Assembly: GCA_963845755.1 (NCBI GenBank)
Contig: CAWJTV010000031.1
Coordinates: 160,001 to 224,000 of the forward strand
From: an uncultured Planctomycetota bacterium
Lineage (GTDB): Bacteria; Planctomycetota; Planctomycetia; Isosphaerales; Isosphaeraceae
Reading direction: 5' to 3'
DNA length: 64,000 nt
Shown here one piece after another: positions 5,778 to 21,840 of the stretch; position 1 is the stretch's first letter, and each line of letters starts with the position of its first letter. Made by a program: the position numbers and the translations under genes. The notes under the pieces are model-generated. The model saw nothing but the letters and a program-made list of their open reading frames with translations, ran no database searches and was not told the DNA's origin.

Positions 5778-8700
5778 CTACACGTGAACGTGATCGTGTT
5801 CTTCTTCTGCTTCGGCTCGGTGTCCGGCAACCTCACTCAGTGGTCCATGGGTCTCGTCCTTGAGGAGTTTGCGTCCGCCGTCCAGTTGCCCGAATAAATA
5901 ATACAGGCCGGGAATGACCAAGACTCCGATCACCGTGCCCACCAGCATGCCGCCGGCTCCCGTCGTGCCGATGGTTCGGTTGCCGATCGCCCCGGCGCCG
6001 CTGGCCACCACCAACGGAAGCAGACCCGCGATGAACGCGAACGACGTCATCTGAATCGGCCGGAACCGCAGTTTTGCGCCTTCGACCGCCGCCTCCTGGA
6101 GAGACACGCCTTCCAGCCGACGTTGGACCGCGAATTCCACGATCAAGATCGCGTTCTTGCCCAGCAGGCCGACCAACATCACCAGACCAATCTGGGCGTA
6201 CACGTCGTTAGCCAAACCCATGGCCTGCAGGAAGAAGAACGAACCGAAAAGCCCGACCGGCAGCGACAGGATCACGGCCAGCGGCAGGATAAAGCTCTCG
6301 TATTGCCCGACCAACACCAGATAGACGAACGCGACGACGATGAGGAAGATATAGACGGCCTCATTCCCCTTTCTTGACTCGTCATAAGAGAGACCCGACC
6401 AGCCGACGTCGAAACCGTGAGGCAGCGTCTCGAGGCCGACCTCCTTGATCGCCTGGATGGCTTGACCGGTGCTGTAGCCAGCAGCCGGCGCGCATTGAAT
6501 GGCGGCGGAGGTGTACAGGTTATACCGGGTGATCTCATTCAAACCCTGCTTCTTCTTGACCGTCATGAACGCGGAGTAGGGGACCATTGCCCCTTGGTCG
6601 TTCTTGACGAATAAGTTCTCCAGATCCTCGGGGTAGCGCCGGAACTCCGGCTTGGCCTGGACGAAGACCTTGTAGAACTGGTTGAAGCGAATGAATCCCT
6701 GCTCCCAGGTGCTGCCAATGAGGATGTTGAGGTTGTCCATCGCTGCCTTGATCGACACGCCCTTCTGATAGGCCATGTCTTTATTGATGATCAGCTCGTA
6801 CTGCGGATAGTTGGCGGCGTAGAAGGTGAACATGTTCGTCACCTCCTTACGCTTTTTCAGAGTGGCCATGAACTTCTCGGTCACTTCACCAAGATGCTGG
6901 TAATCCGCGGAGAACGTCTTGTCGAGGACGAGCATGGAGATACCCCCGGCGGTGCCGAAGCCGGGAACCGCGGGCGGTTCGAAGAACTCGAGCTTCACGT
7001 TGCTCATCCGGCGGCATTTTTCTTCGAGATCCACAATGATCTGGCGGGCGGTTCGCGTGCGGTCGGCCCAGGTCTTCAGGTTGATGATACAGGTTCCCGA
7101 GTTCGAGCCGCGGCCTTCGGTCAGGACTTCATAACCGGCCAACGAGGTGACGGAGGTGACCTCCTCGATCTCCTTGACGATCTTCTCGAGCTCCTGGGAT
7201 TTGTCGTTGGTGTACTCGAGCGTGGAGCCCGGAGGGGTCTGGAGGACGGCGTAGATGATGCCCTGGTCCTCGCCCGGGATAAACCCCGTCGGGAGCTGCG
7301 TGTTGACAAGAACGATACCGGCGGCAAAACCCCCGACGACGGCCATGGTCAGCGTGCGGCGCGTGGCGATCCGTCGCACGATCGCGGCATAACCGCCCGT
7401 GACCTTCTCGACGGCGCGGTCAAAAGGACCCCGCACCAACGGCAGAAGAATGAGCAGGAAGCCAACCGGCCCCCACAACTCATAGGCCAGATACGTGATT
7501 CCGCCCAGGACCAGCAACCCTCCCAGCGCAAACAGCAGCTTGACTCCGAGTCCGCGCGGCCTTTCCACGTGGCTCGTGTGGAGGTCAGGGTCGGTGCCGT
7601 TCGTGTGGGAGTCAGTGCCGGTGGGGCTGTGGGGCTTGAGAATCATCGCACAGAGTACCGGCGTCAGCGTCAGGGCCACCAGGCCGGACAGAATGATGGA
7701 CGTGGCCATCGTGATCCCAAACTGGCGGTAGAAGGTGCCGACCGCCCCGGGAATGAACGTCACCGGAATGAAGACGGACGTCATCACGAGGGTGATGGCA
7801 ATGATCGCGCCGGAGATCTCCTGCATGACCTCCATGGTTGCCCGGTAGGGCGATAAGTGCTTCTGGGCCATCTTGGCATGCACCGCCTCGACCACCACGA
7901 TCGCATCGTCCACCACGACACCGATCGCGAGTACCATCGCGAAGAGTGTGATCAGGTTGATCGAGAGCCCCATCAACCGCAAGACAAAGAAGGTCCCGAC
8001 CAGCGACACCGGAACCGCGAGTGTCGGGATCAGCGTGGATCGTAAATCCCCGAGGAACATGTAGACCACGAGCGACACCAAAATGAACGCCTCGAGTAGG
8101 GTGTGCAGCACCTTTTCGATCGAGGCGTCCAGGAATTTGGAGACGTCGTAGGCGAATTCGTAGTTCATCCCGGGAGGGAATGATTCCTTCTTGATCAGGT
8201 CGAGTTCCTTCTTGATTTCCTCGATCACCTCGGCGGCGTTGGAGCCGGGAGCCTGCTTGAGAACGATGGACGCCGCGGGATGCCCGTTGATGTCCGAGTA
8301 AATATCGAAGAACTGGGGACCCAACTCCACATCGCCAACGTCCTTGAGCCGCAGGATCTCCCCATCGGCATTTGCTTTTAGAATGATGCTTTCATACTGC
8401 TCTGGCTTGTTAAAGCGCCCGATATAGGTCAACACGTACTCTTTGGATTGCGACGTCTTCCCCGTGGCCTGGCCGAGTCGTCCGGGCGAACCAATCATGC
8501 TCTGTTCCGACAGAGCCTTCATGACATCCTCGGACGACAGGTTGTAGGCACGCATGCGGTCGGGATTCAGCCAAACCCGCATCGCAAAGATGCGGTTGCC
8601 GAGATTCCTGGGGATGCCCATGCCTTTGATCCGCTTGAGCCGGGGCATGACGAAGACGTTGGCAAAGTTGAAGAGGTCTTTCTGGTCGGCGTTTTTATCC

Positions 8701-9134
8701 GTGCTGTAAATGTTCACGTACATCAGCATGCTCGGCACGACCTGGCTGACGAGGATCCCCTCGCGCACCACCAGGGGCGGGAGCTGGAAGAGCACGATGT
8801 TGACCCGGTTTTGCACGTTCACGACATTGATGTTGGGATCCGTGCCCGGCTCGAAGTAGATGATGATCGCCGCCTCGCCGGCACTCGTGGCGGAGGAGGT
8901 GATGAAGCGCATGTTCTGAACGCCGTTGATGGATTGCTCCAACGGGATCAGAACCGATTCGACCAGGACATTGGCGCTGGCGCCGGGATAGGAAATGGAG
9001 ACCATCACGGTCGGCGGCGCGATGTCGGGGAACTGTGCGATCGGCAGGGTCTTGATCCCCAGCACCCCCAGGAATAAGAGGATGATTGAGATGACGATCG
9101 CGAGTGCCGGGCGATGGAGGATTTTTGTGAACAT
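5778..9134 (-). CDS. RND efflux permease (HAE1/AcrB-like), copy 2
   Basis: 1118 aa with LPIAQFPDIAPP, GVVVDDAIVVVE, GLLGKNAILIVEF and RFRPIQMTSFAF motifs. Confidence 0.95.
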   Translation of the reverse strand: MFTKILHRPALAIVISIILLFLGVLGIKTLPIAQFPDIAPPTVMVSISYPGASANVLVESVLIPLEQSINGVQNMRFITSSATSAGEAAIIIYFEPGTDPNINVVNVQNRVNIVLFQLPPLVVREGILVSQVVPSMLMYVNIYSTDKNADQKDLFNFANVFVMPRLKRIKGMGIPRNLGNRIFAMRVWLNPDRMRAYNLSSEDVMKALSEQSMIGSPGRLGQATGKTSQSKEYVLTYIGRFNKPEQYESIILKANADGEILRLKDVGDVELGPQFFDIYSDINGHPAASIVLKQAPGSNAAEVIEEIKKELDLIKKESFPPGMNYEFAYDVSKFLDASIEKVLHTLLEAFILVSLVVYMFLGDLRSTLIPTLAVPVSLVGTFFVLRLMGLSINLITLFAMVLAIGVVVDDAIVVVEAVHAKMAQKHLSPYRATMEVMQEISGAIIAITLVMTSVFIPVTFIPGAVGTFYRQFGITMATSIILSGLVALTLTPVLCAMILKPHSPTGTDSHTNGTDPDLHTSHVERPRGLGVKLLFALGGLLVLGGITYLAYELWGPVGFLLILLPLVRGPFDRAVEKVTGGYAAIVRRIATRRTLTMAVVGGFAAGIVLVNTQLPTGFIPGEDQGIIYAVLQTPPGSTLEYTNDKSQELEKIVKEIEEVTSVTSLAGYEVLTEGRGSNSGTCIINLKTWADRTRTARQIIVDLEEKCRRMSNVKLEFFEPPAVPGFGTAGGISMLVLDKTFSADYQHLGEVTEKFMATLKKRKEVTNMFTFYAANYPQYELIINKDMAYQKGVSIKAAMDNLNILIGSTWEQGFIRFNQFYKVFVQAKPEFRRYPEDLENLFVKNDQGAMVPYSAFMTVKKKQGLNEITRYNLYTSAAIQCAPAAGYSTGQAIQAIKEVGLETLPHGFDVGWSGLSYDESRKGNEAVYIFLIVVAFVYLVLVGQYESFILPLAVILSLPVGLFGSFFFLQAMGLANDVYAQIGLVMLVGLLGKNAILIVEFAVQRRLEGVSLQEAAVEGAKLRFRPIQMTSFAFIAGLLPLVVASGAGAIGNRTIGTTGAGGMLVGTVIGVLVIPGLYYLFGQLDGGRKLLKDETHGPLSEVAGHRAEAEEEHDHVHV

Positions 9135-9187
9135 GGTCCGGGAACACTCCCGTAGTGTTCGGTGCCGAGAACGTCAGTGAGCGGCTG

Positions 9188-10546
9188 CTATTCCGCGTGG
9201 AATTTTTGGTTCTTAAGGGCCTCTTCCGGCTTACGAAACTCGTATTCCACCTTTCCGTCTTCCTCAATCTCCCGAACCCCTTCGAGAACGATCTTGTCTT
9301 TCACATCAATTCCGCTATTGATGACAAAAACGTCCTCCAGTTCGTGCTGGATGGTGATCAGGTGCCGCTTCGCCTTGTCATCCTCGCCGACGACCCAAAC
9401 GTATCGCTTGTCGAGGAGCTCGAACGTCGCCCGCTGTGGGATGACCAGAGCATTCTTGAGCGTTCGGTGGATCTGGATGGTGCCGGTCTGACCGTGACGC
9501 AGCAGGCCGTCCGGGTTCGGGAAATCCGCCCGGAACGGGATGTTCCCCATCGTGTTGTCGAATTGGCCCTCGATCGCACCGCTGCCGTTGCCCATCTTGC
9601 CGGGATACGGGAACTTATCCTGGTTCGCCAGCACGAGTTCGATTCTGTCCTCGGCCTCATGCTGCTTCCGGTGGGCCATGTATTCGAGGTATTGTTTCTC
9701 GGGTACGTTGAAATAGACCCACATCACGCTGTTATCGGACAAGGTCGTGAGGATGTCCCCCTCCTTGACCAGGCTGCCGAGCTGCTGGCGCTGGCGGTTG
9801 ACGATGCCGTCGAAAGGTGCCTTGACCTTGGCAAAGTTCAATTTGGCCTCCGCCACCTCTAACTTGGCCTGGGCCTTGGCCAGTTTGGCCTTGAACAGTG
9901 CCACCTCATTCGGAGAGATACCGTTTTTCTTGGCCAACGTCTCGGAATAACTTAACTCCATTTTCGCGAAGTTTTTCTCGGCCACCGCGGCTTCCCACTC
10001 TGCCTTGTAAAGAATTGCCAAGGTCTCGAACATCACCTCGCCCTCTTTCACTCGCTGGCCTTCCTTGATCAGGATGGACTTGAGATACCCGTCCTCCAGT
10101 GCACAGACATCAATATGTTGTCGCGAGTGGATCTGGCAGACATATTGCTGGGTGATGATGACCTCTTTTGAGATCGGGGTGGTGACCCAGATCTTCTGTT
10201 CCTCAGCATGGGCCTCCCCCTCGGGCTGGTGAGAATTCGATCCATGCTGCCCGACGATGCGCCCTTTTAATTTCTCGACGTGTACGCTCAGGGTATCAAG
10301 GTGCGCGTAAAGCGTGGAAGTGTTCAGCGACGGGATGTCCACGCGCATCTTGTACAGGCCGAAGACCCCGCCGCCGATCAGGGCGGCGACCAGCAACAAG
10401 GCCATCACCAGCCGTCCCGTGACGGACGACTTCTTGGCTCCAGCATGTTCGATGCGACCTTGGTCGATGGGCGAGCCGTTGAGCTCGATCGATCGATGAT
10501 CAACAAACGTCTCATTGACCATGCCGGACTCAGCAACCCGATTCAT
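9188..10546 (-). CDS. RND periplasmic adaptor (MFP)
   Basis: Lipoyl halves flank an intact alpha-helical hairpin; APFDG and ADFPNPDGLLRHG motifs. Start chosen at ATG 10546 behind a caggag RBS rather than the ORF-track start at 10906. Confidence 0.9.
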   Translation of the reverse strand: MNRVAESGMVNETFVDHRSIELNGSPIDQGRIEHAGAKKSSVTGRLVMALLLVAALIGGGVFGLYKMRVDIPSLNTSTLYAHLDTLSVHVEKLKGRIVGQHGSNSHQPEGEAHAEEQKIWVTTPISKEVIITQQYVCQIHSRQHIDVCALEDGYLKSILIKEGQRVKEGEVMFETLAILYKAEWEAAVAEKNFAKMELSYSETLAKKNGISPNEVALFKAKLAKAQAKLEVAEAKLNFAKVKAPFDGIVNRQRQQLGSLVKEGDILTTLSDNSVMWVYFNVPEKQYLEYMAHRKQHEAEDRIELVLANQDKFPYPGKMGNGSGAIEGQFDNTMGNIPFRADFPNPDGLLRHGQTGTIQIHRTLKNALVIPQRATFELLDKRYVWVVGEDDKAKRHLITIQHELEDVFVINSGIDVKDKIVLEGVREIEEDGKVEYEFRKPEEALKNQKFHAE

Positions 10547-10916
10547 TGCAAGGCTCCTGTTCGACTCTACTCGACGCTGTCCCGATATCTTGGGCAAGAA
10601 AACGCGGTGTGGAATTGGAGGGATTCGAGTACGGAAGGCGATCCGACTCGGTTCGAGGCCGTGGGAGGCGAGGTGGCGCCTGCAAACGCGGGATGATCTT
10701 CTGACCAGGTCGTCGATCGTGGACGTCGGCGTCTGGGTGAGGCCGAACCGACATCCATGAGGGACGTCGAACCCATGCCAGGACCTGGACATTGGCGAGG
10801 CACGGATTGGCCGAGTCGGCGACGTTGATTGCACACCATCCCTCTGGCCGGGCCTGGACGACGCATGAACGACCGGCGACACATCGGCCGGTAATCCGGC
10901 GGCCATCAGAGTACGA

Positions 10917-11282
10917 TCAACAGCGGAGAGGGTAAAGGGAGAGGATCGAGTGGGGGGCGACTAACTGGCGATCGGCGACCTTGCGGAAGGAACAAGGGAT
11001 TAGTAAGGCAACCCGAGGCCCGTCCAGAGCATCAGCCCGCTCCTGCTCTTCACTTTCGGAAGGAAGGGCATCCACCTCCAGGACAGCGTCGGTCGCCATC
11101 GCTGCGCTGAGGTCGGTCGTAGGTTGGCCCAGGGGTAGGACGAAATTACGGCGGAGGCAATCGAGCCGGGTCGAGAAGGAGACGAACCCCGTTGTCCGGA
11201 TCGGCGCAACCAGCACCGACCCCAGTAGCGCCAGCAAGGATGCGAGCCAGAGCGTGGAGGCGAGGCTTTTACGGTCGGGCAT
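10917..11282 (-). CDS. Small hypothetical exported/membrane protein ending ...LYPLRC; paralogue of 5154..5540
   Basis: MPDRKSLASTLWLASLLALLGSVLVAPIR...RRNFV...acidic...PLRC. Lies immediately upstream of an MFP gene, like its paralogue. Confidence 0.6.
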   Translation of the reverse strand: MPDRKSLASTLWLASLLALLGSVLVAPIRTTGFVSFSTRLDCLRRNFVLPLGQPTTDLSAAMATDAVLEVDALPSESEEQERADALDGPRVALLIPCSFRKVADRQLVAPHSILSLYPLRC

Positions 11283-11459
11283 AGCCCTTCGCTTCTCGAG
11301 CGTCGTGATTTGAGGCTGACTCGCCCGCCTTCGGCGAGGTGACCCTCGATCAGGTTGCTTCGCGAATTCTCCGGCTGGCCGGGTGAAACCCACGGCCTCG
11401 TAATATATATACTCTGAATCGACGCGCGAAGGGACCCCAAAATTCCGGACAAACAACAC

Positions 11460-11475
11460 ACGATATCCAAGTCGT
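11460..11475. promoter_or_regulatory. Candidate operator (ACGA-N8-TCGT dyad) in the AT-rich divergent promoter region
   Basis: acgatatccaagtcgt lies between the divergent small-ORF/MFP operon and the wHTH regulator. The dyad arms are only 4 bp, so support is weak. Confidence 0.25.
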
Positions 11476-11518
11476 AAAATTTATAGCTTCGCTATCGACG
11501 GAAGTCAAGAGACGGCGC

Positions 11519-11848
11519 ATGGTTGTTCGAAACATGATAAACGATCCCGGATGGACATTCCTGAGTAACCACGCCCGCGTGCTACGTTTCATCGCAAAAG
11601 AGTCCGAAGTGCGCCTCCGAGAAGTGGCACATCGGGTGGGGATTACCGAGCGGGCCGTCCAACGGATCGTGGCCGAGCTCGAGGAGGGAGGTTACCTCTC
11701 ACGTTCGCGCGCGGGGCGGCGGAATCGCTACGAGGCGCACCTGGACCGCGCGATGGGGCATTCGGTCGAGTCGCGCCGCGAGGTGGGCGTGCTCCTCAAC
11801 CTCATCCTCCGGCCCGGCCAACCCGATTTGGGAGGCCCGGAGAGCTGA
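11519..11848 (+). CDS. Small winged helix-turn-helix transcriptional regulator (MarR/AsnC-type HTH)
   Basis: WTFLSNHARVL...RLREVAHRVGITERAVQRIVAELEEGGYLSRSRAGRRNRY is a typical wHTH. The start may instead be ATG 11534. Confidence 0.88.
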   Translation: MVVRNMINDPGWTFLSNHARVLRFIAKESEVRLREVAHRVGITERAVQRIVAELEEGGYLSRSRAGRRNRYEAHLDRAMGHSVESRREVGVLLNLILRPGQPDLGGPES

Positions 11849-12040
11849 CACAGGTCGCGACGAACCTCTCTGGGGCTCGTCGGGAACTGGTCCGAGAGAT
11901 CCCCGGTCGCGACCCGGATCCTCGCCAACCAACGCTTGCAGGGCGTCGAACCCGCATGAGCGATGGACCTGGAAGGCCGTCGCCTGGTCAGTCGCCCCCA
12001 CGCAGAACCCAGGCCTTCTTGTTGTGCTCTCGCCAACCGG

Positions 12041-13930
12041 TCACTTCCCCGACGTCGCCGGCATCGGCGACTCGGCGGGGGGTGTGCTGCCGCCGGTGTC
12101 GTTGACGGCGGGTTCTTGGGTCCCCTGCTGGCCGAACGGGCCAGGCATGCCCGCGGGTGGTGGCGCGGGCGGGAGCGGGGCGAGGTTCCCCGGTTCGGCG
12201 ACGGGCACCGTCTCGGGGCCGGGCGGGGCAACCGCGGGGGCCTCCTCGATCAGGGCCGGGTCGAGCTGATTGACCGGAGGGATGATGATCGTGTCGCCGA
12301 CGGTCAGGCGATCGAAGGCGGGGACGGCATCCTTGTTCGCCTCCCAGAGGGCCTTGCCATACCGGCTCGACCTGTAGTAGAGCAGAGAGATCGTCCGGAA
12401 GTTCTCGCCGGCGCGGACCGTGTGGGTGTACGGGAATTGACCGTGAAAGTCTGTCGGAGTTGAAATCGTCACCACACCACCACCGAGGGTTTGATAGGTT
12501 CTTACGATGGCAGACAGTTGCTCCGTCTTGGTGTCGATCAAGACCACTCTCGCATCCCTGAGGTCACGCTGGGAGAAAAGCACGTCGATGTATTCGATGC
12601 GGGCATTCTGAAAAAGATCCTCGGCGAATTGGACTGCGGAATCGAGCGTTTTCAACTGCTGTTTCTTGATCTCGATGCTGTTGCTGAAGTTCTCCACCAT
12701 GGACACGCTGTTGATAACCTGGGTAAAAGCCTCGAGGATGACGCGCTGGTAGTTGTAGATGGCCTGCAATTGCCTGGCGTTCGCGTCGAGGTACTGGGCC
12801 CTGATCGCTCTCTTGTTGACCAACGGCCCGACCAGGCCACCGGCGATACTGCCAAGTACGGCGTTCGGCTCGAACAGATGATTGAGGAGGAGGGACTGGA
12901 GGCCAACGCCGCTGGCGATCACCAGTTGAGGAAAGAAGTTGACCCGGGCGACCCTCACGTCGAGACCCGCGGCCGCCAGCTCGCGCTCGGCTTGGCGGAT
13001 ATCGGGGCGGTTCTGGAGCAGCTGCGAGGGGAGTCCGATGCTCAGCGGGTGAATTTTCAGATCGTAGAATCCCGAAGAATCGCGTTCGACACGCTGCGGG
13101 TAGCGATTGACGAGGAAGTTGATCCGGTTTTCGCCCTGGATGATCGCCTGATTAATGATCAACTTTTCGCTGTAGTTCCTTTGAACCTCGGCCTGGAAAC
13201 GCAGGACAGCCAGCTCGGTGCTGCGGGCTGCTTCCTTCCTGGCCTTGGCGATCTCGAGGCTTCGCTGGTTGAGCTCGATGATTTGATCCAGATTCTCAAG
13301 CCGTTTGTCGAGCCCCATGAGCCTGTAAAAATTCTCGGCAATGTCTGCGATCAGAGTGGTCACGAAGTAGTTCCGCTTCTCACTGGCGGCGACGTAGCGC
13401 TGCGCCGCCGCGTCCCTGGCATTCCGCAACTGCCTGTAGATGTCCACCTGCCAGGTGAGGTTGAGGCCCGTCCCGAAATTTCCCGACGGATTGGTAAAAT
13501 GCTTCCCGGGGAGATACGGGTCGTCGAGTATGCCGGCTCCTTCTTCCGTGAAGCGGCTGTATCTGTACAGCCCCGTGCCGGCCGCGACACTGACGAAGGG
13601 AAGATACGCCCCTGACCGCGCCAGAACTTCGTTGCCGGCGATCTGGACCTCCTCATTCAGGACCTTCAGCTCCCGATTGTCGAACAATGCCTTTTCAATT
13701 AAATATGTAAGCATGCGATCATTATAAAACTCTTCGATCCCGAGCTGAGACGAGTTTTCCGAGCTGGTCTCTCCCTTGAAGTCGGTCGGCAGGCCTGGTC
13801 CCGGTTCCGGATGACGGAGAGGGGGGATTCCGCAGGACGGCAGAACTAGCAGCATGATGGCGCAAGTGATCGCTCTTGTAATCACGCGCTTTATGTGCTT
13901 TGTGTTCGAAAGCCTCATGAACTGGTTCAT
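12041..13930 (-). CDS. TolC/OprM-family outer membrane efflux lipoprotein with a C-terminal LysM-like domain and Pro-rich tail
   Basis: Lipobox-like LLVLPSC; OEP motifs (ALFDNRELK, LLQNRPDIRQAERELAAA, YQTLGGG), then HTVRAGENFRTISLLYY...LWEAN...LTVGDTIIIPP. Start chosen at ATG 13930 (gagg RBS); 13918 is an alternative. Confidence 0.9.
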   Translation of the reverse strand: MNQFMRLSNTKHIKRVITRAITCAIMLLVLPSCGIPPLRHPEPGPGLPTDFKGETSSENSSQLGIEEFYNDRMLTYLIEKALFDNRELKVLNEEVQIAGNEVLARSGAYLPFVSVAAGTGLYRYSRFTEEGAGILDDPYLPGKHFTNPSGNFGTGLNLTWQVDIYRQLRNARDAAAQRYVAASEKRNYFVTTLIADIAENFYRLMGLDKRLENLDQIIELNQRSLEIAKARKEAARSTELAVLRFQAEVQRNYSEKLIINQAIIQGENRINFLVNRYPQRVERDSSGFYDLKIHPLSIGLPSQLLQNRPDIRQAERELAAAGLDVRVARVNFFPQLVIASGVGLQSLLLNHLFEPNAVLGSIAGGLVGPLVNKRAIRAQYLDANARQLQAIYNYQRVILEAFTQVINSVSMVENFSNSIEIKKQQLKTLDSAVQFAEDLFQNARIEYIDVLFSQRDLRDARVVLIDTKTEQLSAIVRTYQTLGGGVVTISTPTDFHGQFPYTHTVRAGENFRTISLLYYRSSRYGKALWEANKDAVPAFDRLTVGDTIIIPPVNQLDPALIEEAPAVAPPGPETVPVAEPGNLAPLPPAPPPAGMPGPFGQQGTQEPAVNDTGGSTPPAESPMPATSGK

Positions 13931-13990
13931 CCGCCTCGTCCTTGAGGAGTTGCGCTCGTCGGCAATCTCGCCGAAGAAGAAATAGTCGAT
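13895..13990 (-). pseudogene. Relic of the 3' end of an RND permease gene overlapping the tolC-like start
   Basis: Reads YFFFGEIADER[-1 nt]LLKDEADEPVHEAFEH versus YYLFGQLDGGRKLLKDETHGPLSEV at the end of permease copy 2. Shares ctcgtccttgaggagtt with ~5853..5869. Confidence 0.6.
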
Positions 13991-15036
13991 CAACTCCTGG
14001 CTCGTGCACGGCCCATTCATGAGCGTCCTCAGCGAATGGTCGAACAGGCCATGCCCGCGGAGAACTATATATTGATCGACCAGGGCGGGTTGTGACTTTA
14101 GTAGCGGATTGCGCGATTGGGAAAAATGACCGGATCCCCCGGCGCTGAAATCGGAAACATCCCAGCTTTCGCATTTTAGCAATTGCCGGGTTCCAAATAC
14201 GACGCAATTTCGAGGGGCACACGTTCGCTAATCTGGCTCCGGGGCAATCGAAGCGGCCCTTGAGGGCTGGACTAACATCGGGCGTACCCTTGATATCTCG
14301 GCCAGCGCACGTCGAGGCAAGGTCGTACTGAAGTGATGTCAACGCTGATCGACCTCATCGATTATTCGACGATCTCACAGGAACTCTCTGGAAAAGCCAT
14401 TACGTCATCTGACATGCCCCTTTACCCCGTCGGCCGCCAGGCTGCGGACCGATTCTCCGACTCCCGGTGCCGCCTTTTCCCACGCGCTCAGTTCAAGCCC
14501 GAATCGCCACCGTTTTTCATGGCGTGCTGCGTCCGTGCGTCCGTGGTTGTATTGTGACTCGGTCGCAATTCGTCATGACTCGCCCGGTACTCACTCAAGC
14601 CTGGAATTGGGACGTACTCGCCGGACCATCTCCTCGACCCACCGAGGAAGAATCTGAGACGACCCTCTTGATTCCGACGATAACCGGTGTTAGAAGCATT
14701 TCTTTCGCTGAGCGATGAGATTTGTGTCGGTTTTGAATATGTGCGAAAACGCCGCATCGGCGCCGATTGCCGATGAAACCGCATCTCCTGAGTTTTGGCC
14801 GCGCGTTGTTGCACCACCAGGCTGTGATGCAATGCGGAATTGGTGGTACCAGAGGATCGGGAATTCCCTCAAGAATAATGGACGTCCCAACGATGCGCGA
14901 GTGCCAAGATCACAGGACGACGTGCAACATTCCTTGACGCGTCGGTGTACTGGTCGGCTGCCGGTGACTTTCGGGACAGCGAGCCGCTGCCTTGTGGGAT
15001 CAAGCGGTTGATCGAACGAGAACGGGCAGATTCCTG

Positions 15037-15900
15037 ATGGGACCGCTAGAACTCGTCAAACTGGATCGCCTCATGGATCGTTCGAGCGGGAGGTCTGAGA
15101 TCGTGGTTGCCTTGATCGACGGCCCGGTTGTCATCGATCATCCGGGCTTTGCCGCCGGTAACGTGCGCGAGATGGTCGGAACGCGAAATGCAGCCTGCGT
15201 TCGCTCCGCGAGCGCAGCTTGCCTGCATGGAACATTCGTGGCGGGCATACTCTTCGCGAGACGAGGATCAGCAGCACCAGCCATTTGTCCGGCGTGCACT
15301 CTATTGGTACGGCCGATTTTTGGGGAGACCCCCGCCTCGAACGAAGAGATGCCAAGAGCGACTCGGGAAGAAGTGGCGACAGCGATTACCGAATCTGTTC
15401 AAGCCGGAGCGAATGTGATCAACCTCAGTGCGGCATTCGCCAGACCGTCATCGCGAGGTGAACGCTCGTTGGAACTGGCGTTGGATTATGCGGCCAGGCG
15501 GGAAGTTCTGGTTGTCGCGGCCGCAGGAAATCAGGGAACGGTCGGCAGTTCAGCCATCACCCGTCATCCGTGGGTGATCGCCGTGATCGGCTGCGATCAG
15601 GACGGCAGGCCCACGGCGGAGTCGAACCTGGGAAGATCCATCGGCAGCCGAGGGTTGGCCGCTCCGGGACAGAACATCACCAGCCTGGGGACAGACGGAA
15701 GGCCCCAAACGTCCGGCGGTACCAGTGCGGCAGCTCCGTTCGTCACCGGCGCGATCGCCTTGCTCTGGTCGGAGTTTCCCGGTGCCAGCGCCGCCCAACT
15801 CAAGCTGGCCTTGACCCAGGCCGGCCAACCACCGAGAAGAACCATCGCGCCCCCCCTCTTGAATGCCTGGGCAGCGTATGAAGCTATGGCCATCAATTAA
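15037..15900 (+). CDS. S8 subtilisin-like serine peptidase, PatA/PatG-type, stand-alone domain
   Basis: Catalytic motifs ALIDGPV (Asp), HGTFVAGIL (His), AAAGNQG (oxyanion Asn) and GTSAAAPFVTG (Ser). No signal peptide. The DGPV and AAGNQG context plus the adjacent PatG-domain gene point to the cyanobactin protease subfamily. Confidence 0.9.
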   Translation: MGPLELVKLDRLMDRSSGRSEIVVALIDGPVVIDHPGFAAGNVREMVGTRNAACVRSASAACLHGTFVAGILFARRGSAAPAICPACTLLVRPIFGETPASNEEMPRATREEVATAITESVQAGANVINLSAAFARPSSRGERSLELALDYAARREVLVVAAAGNQGTVGSSAITRHPWVIAVIGCDQDGRPTAESNLGRSIGSRGLAAPGQNITSLGTDGRPQTSGGTSAAAPFVTGAIALLWSEFPGASAAQLKLALTQAGQPPRRTIAPPLLNAWAAYEAMAIN

Positions 15901-15915
15901 CCTGGAGGCAGCCCC

Positions 15916-16116
15916 GTGGACCGGCAATTCGACTCGACAAGCGATCGCCAACAGCACCCGACACATCAAGTACGGCTTCCCGGCTTCCTGATCGAAGAAG
16001 AAATCGGGCTCGGCGACGTGATCAAGAAAGCAACCTACGCCATGGGCATCAGGCCCTGCGGCGACTGTGAAAGGCGCGCGGCGGTCCTGAACCGCTGGAT
16101 GACCTTCTCTCGATGA
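15916..16116 (+). CDS. Small hypothetical CxxC protein (66 aa)
   Basis: GGAGG RBS before a GTG start; VRLPGF...IGLGDVIKKAT...IRPCGDCERRAAVLNRW; tightly packed between the S8 and PatG-domain genes. Confidence 0.8.
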   Translation: MDRQFDSTSDRQQHPTHQVRLPGFLIEEEIGLGDVIKKATYAMGIRPCGDCERRAAVLNRWMTFSR

Positions 16117-16145
16117 CAACGGCAACATACAGGAGGGCAACCACG

Positions 16146-17087
16146 ATGGCGCAATCTCAAGCGGAACTTCAAGAGCAAACCGAAACAGCATCACCTCTCC
16201 GGGATGACCCTCCGGCAGCCGTTGCACGTGCCTTCGGCGCCCCGGCCGGTGCCATCTCCCCACAGGCCTGCGCGACTTGCGGAACCGCGATCGCCAGCAA
16301 CGGTGGTCCCGTAACTCCAAGCACCTGGCTCTATGCGATCGGCAACATCGAGGCGCGCTTCCCGTCGCTTTCCCTGGAGAAGGAGTTCGCCCAGGCCACT
16401 GGCCGCGACAACACGTCGGGGCTCACCGACAGACAAGTGTTTCAGGCCGTGCTCTCCAAGCCCGAGAACCGCTACCTGGCGCGCCAGTGCTGCTACATCA
16501 TGATGATCGGTGGGCTCGACACTTACATCCTGGTGCCACGCGAGTACTGGGACGTGGCTCTGCTCGTGGGAACCATCCGCGCCAACCCCAGTCCGATGGA
16601 TCTGGACGTGGTCATCGGCACGAAGGGGCAGATTGCTCCGCCGCAGAAGTGCAACGGTTTGCTGCTTCCCGTCGTGGTCTTCGACCAGCTCTACTCATTC
16701 GACCGCGATGCCTTGATCAAGTCGATCCCGAAGCCGGAGAAGATTTCCGCCAAGGACTTTGCGCCTGCCGCCGAAGAAGTGTTCGACCGCGTCATGCAGA
16801 TCGCCGACAACGCGGGTGCCACCGACGAGCATCGCGCCTTGAACTACCTCGCCGTGCGTTACCCGGCGATCTACGCGAAGGCCGCCGAGTACTTCGCGCA
16901 GAATTGTTCGCTCACGGCGGTGGACGTCCAGGGGTCTCCGCTCAGTGGCGCGCGCAACGTGCTGGACGTGATTTTCTCCTACACCAACCGTAACACCGAC
17001 GTGCTGGAGAAGTGCTTTGTGCGGGTTGACGTGACCGACGAGTTCCCGTTCCTGGTCACCAAGCTGTCACCGTATTACGACCGGTGA
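16146..17087 (+). CDS. Stand-alone PatA/PatG C-terminal (DUF; PatG_D/PatG_C-like) domain protein
   Basis: YAIGNIEARFPSLSLEKEF, NRYLARQ, LDVVIG, NAGATDEHRALNYLA and the C-terminal VRVDVTDEFPFLVTKLSPYYDR match the cyanobactin protease C-terminal domain. AGGAGG RBS before ATG 16146. Confidence 0.88.
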   Translation: MAQSQAELQEQTETASPLRDDPPAAVARAFGAPAGAISPQACATCGTAIASNGGPVTPSTWLYAIGNIEARFPSLSLEKEFAQATGRDNTSGLTDRQVFQAVLSKPENRYLARQCCYIMMIGGLDTYILVPREYWDVALLVGTIRANPSPMDLDVVIGTKGQIAPPQKCNGLLLPVVVFDQLYSFDRDALIKSIPKPEKISAKDFAPAAEEVFDRVMQIADNAGATDEHRALNYLAVRYPAIYAKAAEYFAQNCSLTAVDVQGSPLSGARNVLDVIFSYTNRNTDVLEKCFVRVDVTDEFPFLVTKLSPYYDR

Positions 17088-17118
17088 GACACCCAAAATC
17101 GAGCAGGAGGTACGTACG

Positions 17119-17430
17119 ATGAGTTTTCCCGGATTTGGTGCGCAGAATTCGCTTTACAAATCGACCGGCTCTTACTGGATGGCCGGAAGTTTTGACCACG
17201 CTCAAGGAATCATCCCACAAACGATCACCTGTGGGCCGTGCCAATTGCAGAACAACGCGTGCGTGCGCCAGTGCACTATCTGTATCTTCCACAAGTGTCC
17301 TCCTGGTACGATCAATAGTTGCGACCCCGGCGGTTGCACGACCACGATCGAATCGTGCGCGTCCAGCCAATGTCCACCACCACCGCCGCCGCCGCCGTGC
17401 TGCCCCGCGGGCTGTCAGGGGACATGTTGA
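17119..17430 (+). CDS. Putative precursor peptide: 34-aa leader plus 69-aa core with 14 Cys and a Pro8 tract
   Basis: Strong AGGAGG RBS; MSFPGFGAQNSLYKSTGSY...QGIIPQ followed by a Cys-rich region ending in Cys; last gene of the protease operon. Confidence 0.8.
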   Translation: MSFPGFGAQNSLYKSTGSYWMAGSFDHAQGIIPQTITCGPCQLQNNACVRQCTICIFHKCPPGTINSCDPGGCTTTIESCASSQCPPPPPPPPCCPAGCQGTC

Positions 17431-18166: not shown

Positions 18167-18922
18167 CTATTCGTCGCCATGCTGCGGCGGAGACTTGCCC
18201 ACGCGTTTGATTAAACGCGGGTACGTGACGGTCGGGATCGCTTTCTCGATCCGATCGATCTGAACCTGATGATACCATTCATCACCGGGGTCGAACCAGT
18301 AACCGAAGACACGGCCCTGCTTCAGATTCAGGTCGTCCAGCTTCGTCTGACCGGCGTCTCCTTCCGCTTTCTTCCGTGTTTGCGGACCGGGACCTCCATA
18401 ATTGGGTCCATCGGGATCGAACGGACGCTTGCCGAACTGGAATTCGTACTGAGAGTCGTCACGACGGTCATACGCCTGGAAGATGGCCTCATGCAGTTGT
18501 CCGAGTGTTTGGTCGCCTCGGATTTCGATCGCACGGCTGATTCGCGTGTTGGCGAACTTCTTACTGATTGGCCCACTCATCAAGAAGACCGAGACAACGT
18601 AGAGGTTCGTCGGAGGCGTTGCCGGGCCCTCGGCAGCGCGTCTCGGTTGGTCGGGAGAACGCGTCGGAGTCGTCGTCTGCTTGCGACTGTTCCAAGCCGG
18701 AATCTCGTCCTCAGGGACCAGAACCTGGAGCGAACGGGCCTGGCCGGGATGGCGCAGGATCAGCCCTTTCTTCTCGAGCATCTTCACCATCTGGTTCACC
18801 GAAGGCGGTGAGACGCAAAGGGCCGCCGCGATCTCCGATTCGGCAGGCGGGTATCCGTGCCGATTGATGTAGGCGAGAATGAACGAGAGATAACGACCTT
18901 GAGTCGGCGTGAAGTCAGCCAT
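18167..18922 (-). CDS. LexA/MarR-like HTH fused to a pRiA4b ORF-3-like domain
   Basis: N-terminal FTPTQGRYLSFI...GYPPAESEIAAALCVSPPSVNQMVKMLEKKGLI...ARSL; C-terminal RAIEIRGDQTLGQLHEAIFQAYD...GYWFDPGDEWYH...SPPQ. Confidence 0.82.
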   Translation of the reverse strand: MADFTPTQGRYLSFILAYINRHGYPPAESEIAAALCVSPPSVNQMVKMLEKKGLILRHPGQARSLQVLVPEDEIPAWNSRKQTTTPTRSPDQPRRAAEGPATPPTNLYVVSVFLMSGPISKKFANTRISRAIEIRGDQTLGQLHEAIFQAYDRRDDSQYEFQFGKRPFDPDGPNYGGPGPQTRKKAEGDAGQTKLDDLNLKQGRVFGYWFDPGDEWYHQVQIDRIEKAIPTVTYPRLIKRVGKSPPQHGDE

Positions 18923-19153
18923 AACATCGTTTCCGTCATGGGTGTGAGGCCAAGGTTGCGGTTTCCATGCTGGCTCGCCAATGACGCGATTCCACATCAT
19001 GAGAGCGACGGCTTCCCGAACGACCATTCAATAACGGATTCCAGTGTGCATGCGAATCGTCGAACGGCTTGAACGAGGAAAACGACCCGGCGTACATTGG
19101 GTTCTGCCGGTGACGTCAGAATCCCCATTCAAAGCTGCGCGGGTCGCCTCACG

Positions 19154-21840
19154 ATGCACGAACTGACAATCACACCACAAGGGCATCTCCTGGTTCGAGA
19201 AACGTCTCTCGATACTCCGGATCGGAAACTCTCGAAGGCGATGCTCGAGGCGTACCGTGAAAGTCCGGCCCGAGGAATGCTCTACTCTGCAAGTGCAGAG
19301 ATCGAAGCGGCGCTGCCGTCGTCTTTCGAGTTCGCACGATCGATCGCGCGCCTTTATCTCACGGACCTCTGCAAGGCCGCAACGGGCGAACCCGGCGAAT
19401 CCATCCCCGCACTCCCGCCTCCCGCGGCCGACCTCGAGCTTGCCATGAGGCAGGCGCCTCCGATGATCGGGCTGGAGTACCTGACACCGGAAGTCCTTTC
19501 GAATTGGTGGCAAGACCTCGATTCTCTCACACGGAGCGAAGTCGGAAAGCACTCCGGAGGAGCTCAAGGCTATCTGCGGGAGCGCAATCCTCATTGGCGT
19601 TTTGTCGGCCGTGTGACGTTTCATCTGGCCGAGAACAAGAGGGACCCCGAGTACCCGTTCGCGTTCCTGGCCACATTTGCCAACGGTCTGACACCGCAGG
19701 GAAAAGTGAAGCACGAACCGCTGGGGCGGGCGCTCCAGCAGTATGCCGGCGATCAGAACCGCGCGGCAATGCTGAATTTATTGCTCCCCATTTCGAAAGC
19801 CGCCGAATCCTCGGAATTGATTCGACGACTCGTCAACTCCGAGCAAATCTACCACCCCCTCGCGTGGACGCCGAGGGCTGCCTACGAATTCATCCAGGCG
19901 ATACCCCTCTTTGAATCCAGCGGTTTGATCGTACGGTTGCCAGACTGGTGGAATGCCCGGAAGCCGCTCCGGCCACTCGTCAGTGTGAAGATCGATTCGA
20001 AGAATTCGGCCGGCATCGGCGTCGATGCGATGATGCAATTCTCGATCGGCATGAGCCTCGAAGGAGAAACGCTCAGCCCCGATGAGATCGCTCGATTGCT
20101 CGAATCGACCGGGGGCCTGGTCCCGTTGAAAGGTAAGTGGGTCGAAGTGGATCCGGAGAAGTTGAAGCAAGCCCTCGAGCATTGGAAGGGCGTCGAGAAA
20201 GACGTCCGCCGGGAGGGTATCTCCTTCTTTGAAGGAATGCGTCTCCTCTCCGGAGCGAATCTCGCCCAAGAGGAAGACGGCAAGAGCCAGGCGGCGATTC
20301 GCGAATGGTCGGGTCTGACCGCCGGCGCCGAACTGGAGGAGATCCTCAAGGGCCTGCGTTCACCGGAGACCCGAAAGGAGAAGGCCCCCCCCGATTTGAA
20401 AGCGGACCTTCGCCCGTATCAGCAGACAGGCTACGCCTGGTTGCGATTCGTCGCTCGCCTGGGTCTGGGAGGCTGCCTGGCCGACGATATGGGCCTCGGC
20501 AAGACCGTGCAGGTGATCTCTCTGCTGCTCGATCTGAAGCGCGCAGGCCGAAGAACGCGAGCCTGCTCGTCGTGCCGGCGTCGCTGATCGCGAACTGGAA
20601 ATCCGAGCTGGCGAAGTTCGCGCCAAGTCTTTCTTTCGCCGTAGCCCATCCTTCGGAAGTGAAAGCAAGCACCGCTGAAGCCGGACTCGCGAATGCCGAC
20701 ACGTTCGATTTGATTATCACCACGTATGGCATGCTCGTCCGCACGGACTGGATCAAGCAGCATCGCTGGCAACTCGCGATCCTCGATGAGGCCCAGGCGA
20801 TCAAGAACTCCGGCACGAAGCAGACCCGAGCGTCGAAGGAATTGACCGCCGCCAGTCGGATCGCTATGACCGGCACGCCCGTCGAGAATCGCTTGTCGGA
20901 CCTCTGGTCGCTCTTCGATTTCTTGAACCCCGGATTGCTCGGATCCGCCAGGGAATTCAGCTCGTTCGTCAAACGCCTCCAGAACGCAGAGCCTCCCTCG
21001 TTCGAACCGCTGCGCAATCTCGTACGACCCTACATCCTGCGGCGGCTGAAGACCGACAAGCGGGTGATCTCCGATCTCCCGGATAAGACGGAGGTGAAAG
21101 CCTATTGTGCGCTGAGCAAGCACCAGGCTGCCCTTTACCAGTACGCAGTCGATGATCTCGCGGAGCAGTTGAAGGGTTCCGACGGGATCCAGCGTCGGGG
21201 GATCGTCCTGGCCCAACTGATGCGGCTGAAGCAGATTTGCAATCATCCCGCCCAGGTGGCCGGCACCAACGACTTCGCGGCCGAGCAGAGCGGCAAGTTT
21301 CGCCGGCTGGCGGAGATCGCCGAAGAGATCGCTTCCCGGCAGGAGAAGGTCCTCGTTTTCACGCAGTTTCGAGAGATCGCCGACCCGCTGGCTGGGTTCC
21401 TCGCCACGCTTTTCGGCCGATCCGGGTTGGTGCTCCACGGGGGGACGAGCGTCAAGAAGCGGAAGGAGTTCGTCGATCAGTTCCAACGCGAAGAGGGGCC
21501 GCCTTTCTTCGTATTGTCGCTGAAAGCGGGCGGCACCGGGCTGAACCTGACGGCGGCTTCGCACGTAATACACTTCGACCGCTGGTGGAACCCGGCGATC
21601 GAGAATCAGGCGACCGACCGCGCCTTTCGGATTGGCCAGAAGAAGAACGTGCTGGTCCATAAGTTCATCTGCCGGGGAACCGTCGAGGAACGGATCGACG
21701 AAATGATCGCGCGGAAAAGCCAGGTCGCAGGCGAAGCAATCGGTGGAGAAGACTCGGGCGAAGTCTTGCTGACAGAAATGGACAACGATACGTTACTGAG
21801 GTTCGTGAAGCTGGATTTGCACCAGTCGACCGCAGAGTGA
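19154..21840 (+). CDS. SNF2-family (SWI2/SNF2) helicase/ATPase; one frameshift near 20545
   Basis: LRPYQ and CLADDMGLGKT in one frame; LLVVPASL, LDEAQAIKN, TGTPVEN, SLKAGGTGLNLT and QATDRAFRIGQ in the next. Confidence 0.92.

Follow-up and report, generated by a model that had tools for sequence, protein, structure and literature searches.

A set of four genes at positions 15037 to 17430 of a 64,000-nucleotide stretch of DNA from an uncultured planctomycete of the Isosphaeraceae (contig CAWJTV010000031.1, positions 160,001 to 224,000; the window in what follows) is one copy of a widespread bacterial gene set, a portable cassette. It encodes a PatA-type S8 serine protease, a small CxxC protein, a stand-alone cyanobactin-type domain whose function is unknown (DUF) and a Cys-rich precursor peptide. 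By the five-step scheme proposed below, the cassette would mature linear, disulfide-bonded miniproteins, a reading to which we give a probability of about 0.6. The original prediction, made from the letters of the window, was of a non-cyanobactin system maturing Cys-rich peptides; it is supported by linkage, motifs and Cys parity, and the chemistry is proposed from these. With a gene-encoded precursor, a conserved leader, a variable core and linkage to a maturation enzyme, all recognized in the sequence, the system would count as one for peptides that are made on ribosomes and modified after translation (RiPPs), in the broad sense. No description of the cassette was found in the literature searched, whose coverage left out most subscription journals and all supplements, and the cassette is apparently undescribed so far.

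Organization of the cassette

The features of the cassette are as follows (aa, amino acids).

15037..15900, plus strand: PatA-type S8 serine protease, 287 aa, PF00082, with D28, H64, N165 and S230; without the PatG capping insertion and without a DUF
15916..16116, plus strand: CxxC protein, 66 aa, GTG start; RLPGF, then a two-helix unit with C48-x-x-C51
15973..15987, plus strand: RLPGF motif of the CxxC protein (R20 to F24), which resembles the N-terminal box of the precursors
16146..17087, plus strand: stand-alone cyanobactin-type DUF (PatG_D + PatG_C), 313 aa; residues 57-313 predicted to fold like 4uvq
16254..16280, plus strand: predicted protease site in the DUF protein, I37-S-P-Q40, followed by C42-x-x-C45
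17119..17430, plus strand: whole precursor, 103 aa, 14 Cys
17119..17220, plus strand: precursor leader, 34 aa, with N-box PGF..A...SLY and, as the predicted cut site, C-box I31-I-P-Q34
17221..17430 (stop codon included), plus strand: predicted core, 69 aa, 14 Cys, with a poly-Pro stretch

All four co-oriented genes of the original prediction were borne out. They are separated by 15, 29 and 31 nucleotides, and the three ribosome-binding sites called clear at the outset pair well with the anti-Shine-Dalgarno (anti-SD) sequence (CxxC gene -9.3, DUF -10.8, precursor -11.7 kcal/mol; -3.6 at the protease gene). A DUF start farther upstream, at 16113, was discarded for its weak SD (-3.1 vs -10.8 kcal/mol) and because the alignment of close homologues begins at 16146. 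Promoter-like sites were not found at the operon, and terminator-like sites were no more frequent than expected by chance.

Linkage of precursors to protease and DUF genes

Neighbourhoods were counted for the best 80 of 272 DUF relatives, obtained from a single scan of species-representative genomes. Of these loci 69 have an S8 gene, and a CxxC gene and a precursor are each present in 68; the three occur together in 57, some loci being cut by contig ends. The strict leader pattern missed at least five further loci with visible leaders. The expected association of homologous S8/DUF operons with leader-bearing Cys-rich open reading frames (ORFs) is thus found. In all, 188 leader-bearing ORFs were counted, from 1 to 8 in a locus, and 187 lie on the strand of the DUF; the remaining one adjoins a second, minus-strand DUF. 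Among 816 ORFs neighbouring the 80 loci, only the DUF, the S8 protease, a frame antisense to the DUF and the precursor cores formed families with members in more than four loci; no macrocyclase, heterocyclase or tailoring enzyme recurred.

In its 163 matches to PF07596 (none in 14 control genomes), a family linked to planctomycetes, the host resembles a planctomycete. The description as a pathway in a planctomycete holds for this host, but the system is not specific to planctomycetes: the cassette is rare in the host's order, and Acidobacteriota supply most of the 80 loci, the others coming from Proteobacteria, Actinomycetota, Nitrospirota and further phyla. Carriers in culture include Sinorhizobium mexicanum, Edaphobacter modestus, Methylobacter luteus and Nitrosospira multiformis. 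At an E value up to 0.001 the DUF profile matches 1,955 clusters at 50% identity, fused and partial proteins counted. In the host's order a close DUF occurs in 3 of 121 genomes and in none of the 47 high-quality ones; the same 3 carry the leader, and a fourth genome, without leader, has a distant DUF and no close one. The window DUF is 76% identical to acidobacterial copies vs 57% to the host's own paralogue, and the guanine-plus-cytosine content is 61.2% in the cassette, 59.2% in the surrounding 24-kb stretch and 64.4% in the genome. Because of this offset, the closer acidobacterial copies and the rarity in the order, the cassette was likely acquired horizontally.

Leader, cut site and cores

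The window precursor scored 41.2 bits against a leader profile built solely from other loci. When 199,538 six-frame segments of the host genome were searched, eight leader matches reached at least 22 bits and the next best scored 13.9. The precursor is therefore not a chance ORF. The leaders start with an N-box (consensus MxxPGFTAEASL) and end with a C-box, [VIL]xP[QAS], which was found in 126 of the 188 precursors (mean 16.2, maximum 29 in 500 shuffles) at a nearly fixed spacing, 100 of the 126 lying 32-35 residues past the Pro of PGF. In the window precursor, IIPQ ends at residue 34. Cys makes up 0.5% of residues upstream of the C-box and 13.4% downstream. The available text of PMC10885120 gives G(L/V)E(A/P)S as the recognition consensus of PatA. 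The C-box is like it in the hydrophobic P4 and in Pro or Ala at P2.

The cores fall into 123 sequence clusters among 188 and range from 23 to 430 aa, with a median of 51 aa. Of the 185 cores with Cys, 179 have an even number of them, as do 118 of 121 non-redundant cluster representatives, whereas seven other residues were even in only 89-109 of the 188 precursors. The most frequent count is 6, and multiples of four (89) are matched by other even numbers (90). This parity is therefore read as selection for complete disulfide pairing; if all its Cys pair, the window core would hold seven disulfides. Ten cores were scanned, of which three matched Stig1 above the cut-off, one matched Defensin_2 just under it and one gave a weak, unrelated match. 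Stig1 and defensin folds are disulfide-bonded. Stig1-type repeats make up long cores behind the same leader at L011, L023 and L032 (precursors of 199-478 aa), and the first ORF after the DUF at L050 (about 6872-7096) is an actinomycete precursor whose core falls just under the cut-off of the arthropod defensin family (E 7e-4). A follower-like word was seen in only 1 of 185 cores. None of 119 leaders matched a cyanobactin precursor model, and the sole NCBIfam match was unrelated (E 0.079).

The S8 protease

The protease matches PF00082 (E 6.3e-26), and its catalytic motifs are intact, as had been noted: D28, H64, N165 and S230 fall on the corresponding residues of PatA (4h6v, E 1.1e-30). Its four best matches in the PDB are all PatA-type (E 1e-30 to 2e-28), and PatG follows only at 2e-11. 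The capping insertion of PatG, about 35 residues and present in two PatG-type proteases aligned beside it, is absent. Cys54, 62, 84 and 87 are conserved. The score against TIGR03895 was 115 vs a cut-off of 421; this model spans the fused DUF too.

The DUF protein

The original prediction of a stand-alone PatG C-terminal domain held as to stand-alone; rather than the C-terminal part only, the whole DUF is present (PatG_D, E 4.4e-29; PatG_C, E 2e-34). Its structural model has a mean predicted local distance difference test score (pLDDT) of 80.9; residues 57-313 are folded and residues 1-56 lie below 50. The model clearly matches only 4uvq (Foldseek E 8.6e-15; VIA-align Z 21.1, root-mean-square deviation 3.0 over 244 residues, 17-18% identity), which was found by the fold search alone, a sequence search against the PDB giving no match. 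Other fold matches (OB folds and cystatin-like folds, Z up to 7.4) were no stronger than common arrangements give and were left aside. The fold is thus that of PatG-DUF (4uvq; PF18047 + PF18065; Mann et al. 2014, PMC4259220, in the text available). Unlike this DUF, crystallised as PatG 914-1191 from the macrocyclase, the cassette protein stands alone and has a low-confidence N-segment with a predicted cut site and CxxC. Of 74 DUFs, 55 have a C-box followed by a Cys pair no more than 14 residues on (shuffles: mean 5.6, maximum 14), and therefore the DUF, too, is probably trimmed by the protease.

When the DUF (57-313) and the leader were predicted as a complex, separate runs scored 0.57, 0.00 and 0.00, and the outcome was used neither way. 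In six single records the DUF is fused to other domains, among them PF05908, Fic, glycosyltransferase and DUF676 (P0122, P0123, P0149, P0151, P0173, P0200); these may be run-on gene calls.

The CxxC protein

The CxxC protein has no match in Pfam and none in NCBIfam at E up to 1. Of 8000 candidates scored in the search for its relatives, 7990 proved homologous. Across 55 sequences L21, P22 and F24 of RLPGF are invariant and R20 and G23 are kept in at least 90%; the motif has the same letters as the start of many precursors. The second half matches phage family phrog_32048 (function unknown) in 54 of the 55 members, and the GLGD...CxxC unit occurs in phages too. In the model (pLDDT 75), which was examined for a thioredoxin fold around the CxxC, two helices are predicted, the second of them opening with C48-C51. 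A fold search with it gave a single match (Z 2.0), and matches in the Atlas were to unnamed clusters only. Two apparent S8-CxxC fusions (L065, L068) looked by eye like frameshift joins and were not used.

In position the CxxC protein recalls PatB and PatC (TIGR04220 and kin), both being small, non-essential and beside the protease. In cyanobactin loci, PatB-like ORFs and several precursors share an LP...PVxR start, as the CxxC protein shares LPGF with the precursors; the former sharing is an illustration only, since ORFs with this start were what the search pattern picked out. The resemblance is one of position and logic and not of demonstrated homology.

Fused PatA-type genes carry a candidate internal start

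The cassette was originally described as a split PatA. The two genes are indeed separate here; as a fixed trait the split does not stand, since 79 of 86 longer DUF relatives are S8-DUF fusions. In a tree of DUFs (161 rows, FastTree) fused and stand-alone forms are interleaved, with at least 16 fused/split changes vs at least 42 in shuffles, a quick tree of this kind giving no direction to the changes. The DUF clade of the window sits on a long branch, apart from PatA DUFs. A predicted C-box is present in 35 of the 79 linkers of the fused relatives. In 70 of the 79 proteins a Met preceded by K/R/E/G residues lies within about 30 residues past the S8 domain (209 of 1431 control windows, at the protein level).

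PatA-like genes were then compared as DNA in 3 plasmid and 36 metagenome loci. The motif filters were passed by 24 fused genes, of which 21 have a Cys pair in the linker, 17 of these with a PatB- or PatC-like gene in the locus; the other three lack the pair, and two of them are the PatG-type genes whose capping insertion is mentioned above. All 21 PatA-type genes have an in-frame ATG or GTG 16-19 codons past the last S8 motif, and at 19 of them anti-SD pairing reaches -7 kcal/mol or better, whereas such a start was found in 35 of 430 control windows. In 15 genes below 85% identity (median 57%), all 22 Gly codons at fixed offsets 11-15 read GGA; elsewhere the share of GGA is at most 57% among 39 conserved Gly columns. 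The window protease ends where this internal start lies in the fused genes. PatA-type linkers mostly carry a recognition-like word (GIEAS, EVEAA) just before CxC.

Because of the conserved SD and in-frame start at the protease/DUF boundary of the PatA-type genes (L085, L086, L087, L107-L138), it is probable that a stand-alone DUF, laid out like that of the window, is still produced from the fused genes as a separate protein. Alternatively, the GGA/SD signal could reflect ribosome pausing at the domain boundary; the genes are related, so that the internal-start counts are not independent. An internal start in patA was not described in the same body of literature. L120 holds a further PatA-type gene missed by the filter, with its Met a few codons later.

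Comparison with the cyanobactin pathway

The cassette shares with the cyanobactin pathway the PatA-type N-terminal protease and the associated DUF (PatG_D + PatG_C), the latter as a separate gene. PatA and PagA (4h6v, 3zxx, 3zxy, 4h6w; TIGR03895) are alike with the cassette in catalytic residues, lack of the capping insertion, predicted site and associated DUF. Unlike in these, a small gene lies between S8 and DUF, which are ORFs of their own, and the substrates are single Cys-rich cores of 23-430 aa without follower; PatG, YcaO and any recurring tailoring gene are absent. A PatG-type protease with capping insertion was not found, nor does a second protease family recur in the 80 loci. Likewise no PatE-type precursor was found in which RSII and RSIII flank short cores, each precursor having one core. 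Active cyanobactin clusters always encode A and G proteases, according to the text available of PMC4663559. As expected, the locus did not turn out to be a piece of a cyanobactin cluster: it has no PatG, YcaO, follower or short cores, and no such gene recurs in the 80 loci. YcaO had no match in the host genome (87.9% complete), and the control search was positive in 5 of 14 genomes. A search of the host genome for TIGR04220 (PatB) was empty, as was its control, in a genome of that completeness and with PatC outside the search. By its sequence the cassette resembles the PatA half of the cyanobactin pathway yet falls outside it.

A related arrangement is seen in solo fused PatA-type genes (host contig C38; Acaryochloris and Gloeocapsa plasmids), in which S8 and DUF are followed directly by Cys-rich ORFs whose leader ends in a PatA-like site, and which share the site-plus-CxxC linker before the DUF. 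They differ in being fused, in having another N-box and in a DUF closer to that of true PatA; RefSeq names them cyanobactin-type protease. The Cys-rich precursor-like ORFs right behind these genes in Gloeocapsa (L087:6910-7215) and Acaryochloris (L086:6922-7110) are missing from the gene tables. In the host, the fused gene on contig C38 (L084:4975-7544, minus strand) has a frameshift near the catalytic Ser and is followed by two Cys-rich ORFs, whose leader differs and whose cores hold 10 and 8 Cys; the first of them has no Pfam match. No description of solo fused PatA-type genes with Cys-rich precursors was found in the literature searched. A 6-Cys ORF with a PatB/PatE-style N-terminal motif (L127:3399-3632) lies in a locus with PatA, PatG, PatB and PatC genes.

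Proposed maturation and alternatives

From the observed linkage, motifs, parity, fold and internal start signal we infer every chemical step, namely cleavage, folding and export. The S8 protease very likely cuts the precursor after I-I-P-Q34, as PatA does at its own site, and would free the 69-aa core without macrocyclisation. The Cys of the core very probably end up paired as disulfides. The same protease would quite probably trim the unstructured N-segment of the DUF after I-S-P-Q40, leaving CxxC near the new N-terminus. The N-box could well serve as a docking tag, the LPGF copy of the CxxC protein reaching the same site on DUF or protease, a step somewhat more likely than not. Weakest is the tentative proposal that the trimmed DUF and the CxxC protein chaperone the core thiols or shuffle them, by which very different cores might fold. 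The cassette encodes neither exit route nor oxidant, and the host would supply both. From their variability and the one defensin-like core, the cores most likely act extracellularly, in competition or defence.

Several observations weigh against this scheme. Across the 80 neighbourhoods there is no recurrent flavoprotein, oxidase or transporter family. In a crude test of hydrophobicity, the N-termini of 6 of 57 S8 proteases (that of the window included), 1 of 74 DUFs, 0 of 61 CxxC proteins and 3 of 188 precursors were flagged, and by the same test no twin-Arg motif was found in the cassette proteins. The CxxC gene is dispensable, having no match in 12 of 80 loci (some through truncation), and the host's second cassette (contig C14, L081:2563-5521), with S8, DUF and three precursors and without a CxxC gene, still has even-Cys cores. 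The strict C-box is missing from 62 of 188 precursors, the N-box of the window precursor deviates from the consensus at three positions, and N-box frequencies are circular, since the ORFs were chosen by pattern. Some linkers of fused DUFs have no Cys. PatG-DUF did not bind PatE' by nuclear magnetic resonance, according to the text available of PMC4259220; this concerned the PatG domain and a different leader, and it weighs against a simple leader-binding role of the DUF. The main gap is the site of disulfide formation, with few hydrophobic N-termini, no twin-Arg motif and no linked oxidase or exporter.

A redox role of DUF and CxxC protein competes, at only slightly better odds, with oxidation after release. 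In that alternative, with the same protease and products, DUF and CxxC protein would read the leader for export or protease restraint, and disulfides would form outside the cytoplasm, by host Dsb or in air after lysis. The bacterial cytoplasm is reducing, the CxxC gene is often absent and no oxidase recurs. PatA keeps its DUF with CxC, although many cyanobactins have no disulfides and those that form are thought to do so spontaneously (PMC4663559, in the part available). Yet no signal peptide or dedicated transporter accounts for such export, and the Cys pair behind the predicted cut site, kept in split and PatA lineages alike, would go unexplained; we hold this alternative to be rather unlikely. 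Small Cys-rich proteins without signal peptides, together with CxxC motifs in S8, DUF and the small protein, would also suit metal-binding peptides (zinc or copper thiolates) with the motifs as metal-transfer sites, and the crystal of PatG-DUF contains a zinc ion, its ligands not conserved (PMC4259220, same text). Near-perfect even parity with a mode of 6 and no excess of multiples of four, three of ten scanned cores matching Stig1 and one falling just under the Defensin_2 cut-off make such peptides very improbable. The clear kinship of S8 and DUF to PatA and the incomplete host genome would leave room for a locus that is left over from a cyanobactin or azole-peptide cluster or that works with PatG or YcaO encoded elsewhere. 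The empty YcaO search with its positive control, the absence of such genes among the 80 loci, the missing capping insertion, the near absence of follower-like words and the long branch of the DUF clade have largely refuted this reading, which keeps hardly any probability.

Beyond maturation of disulfide-bonded miniproteins as proposed, the cassette might be a dedicated machine for their oxidative folding, perhaps release, beginning its work in the cytoplasm and needing no signal peptides. Activated by the protease, the DUF would be a leader-reading chaperone and thiol shuttle, and patA would hide the same DUF as a second protein. Taken as a whole this is unlikely, the internal start being a much more probable part of it than the folding machine. 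The DUF of PatA and PatG was still called a domain of unknown function in 2025 (PMC12639078, in the text available), and a hidden second protein from patA, if real, would answer what it is. The cassette shows the DUF as a protein of its own in a minimal setting, a direct route to testing its role. The cores offer a natural library of disulfide-rich scaffolds, and a leader-directed protease and folding set that takes cores of 23 to 430 residues would be useful for making disulfide-rich peptides.

Other loci of the host and genes around the cassette

The host carries a decayed copy on contig C36 (L082:4813-5555), in which a C-terminal fragment of the DUF is in frame with a precursor and a transposase-like ORF adjoins, and an orphan precursor locus on contig C33 (L083:4617-4877).

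In the window, divergent from the cassette, positions 5778-14182 of the minus strand hold a resistance-nodulation-division (RND) efflux set of an AcrB-type pump, a membrane-fusion protein and an outer-membrane efflux protein, with a small MarR-like gene between. This operon was rejected as a dedicated exporter, no such family recurring in the 80 loci. Downstream, a LexA-type DNA-binding domain is fused to a pRiA4b ORF-3 domain (18167-19027, minus strand). An SNF2 helicase is spread over two overlapping ORFs (19097-21840, plus strand) with consecutive Pfam matches (positions 1-48 and 49-289) and is probably frameshifted; a SWIM zinc-finger gene lies downstream of these ORFs.

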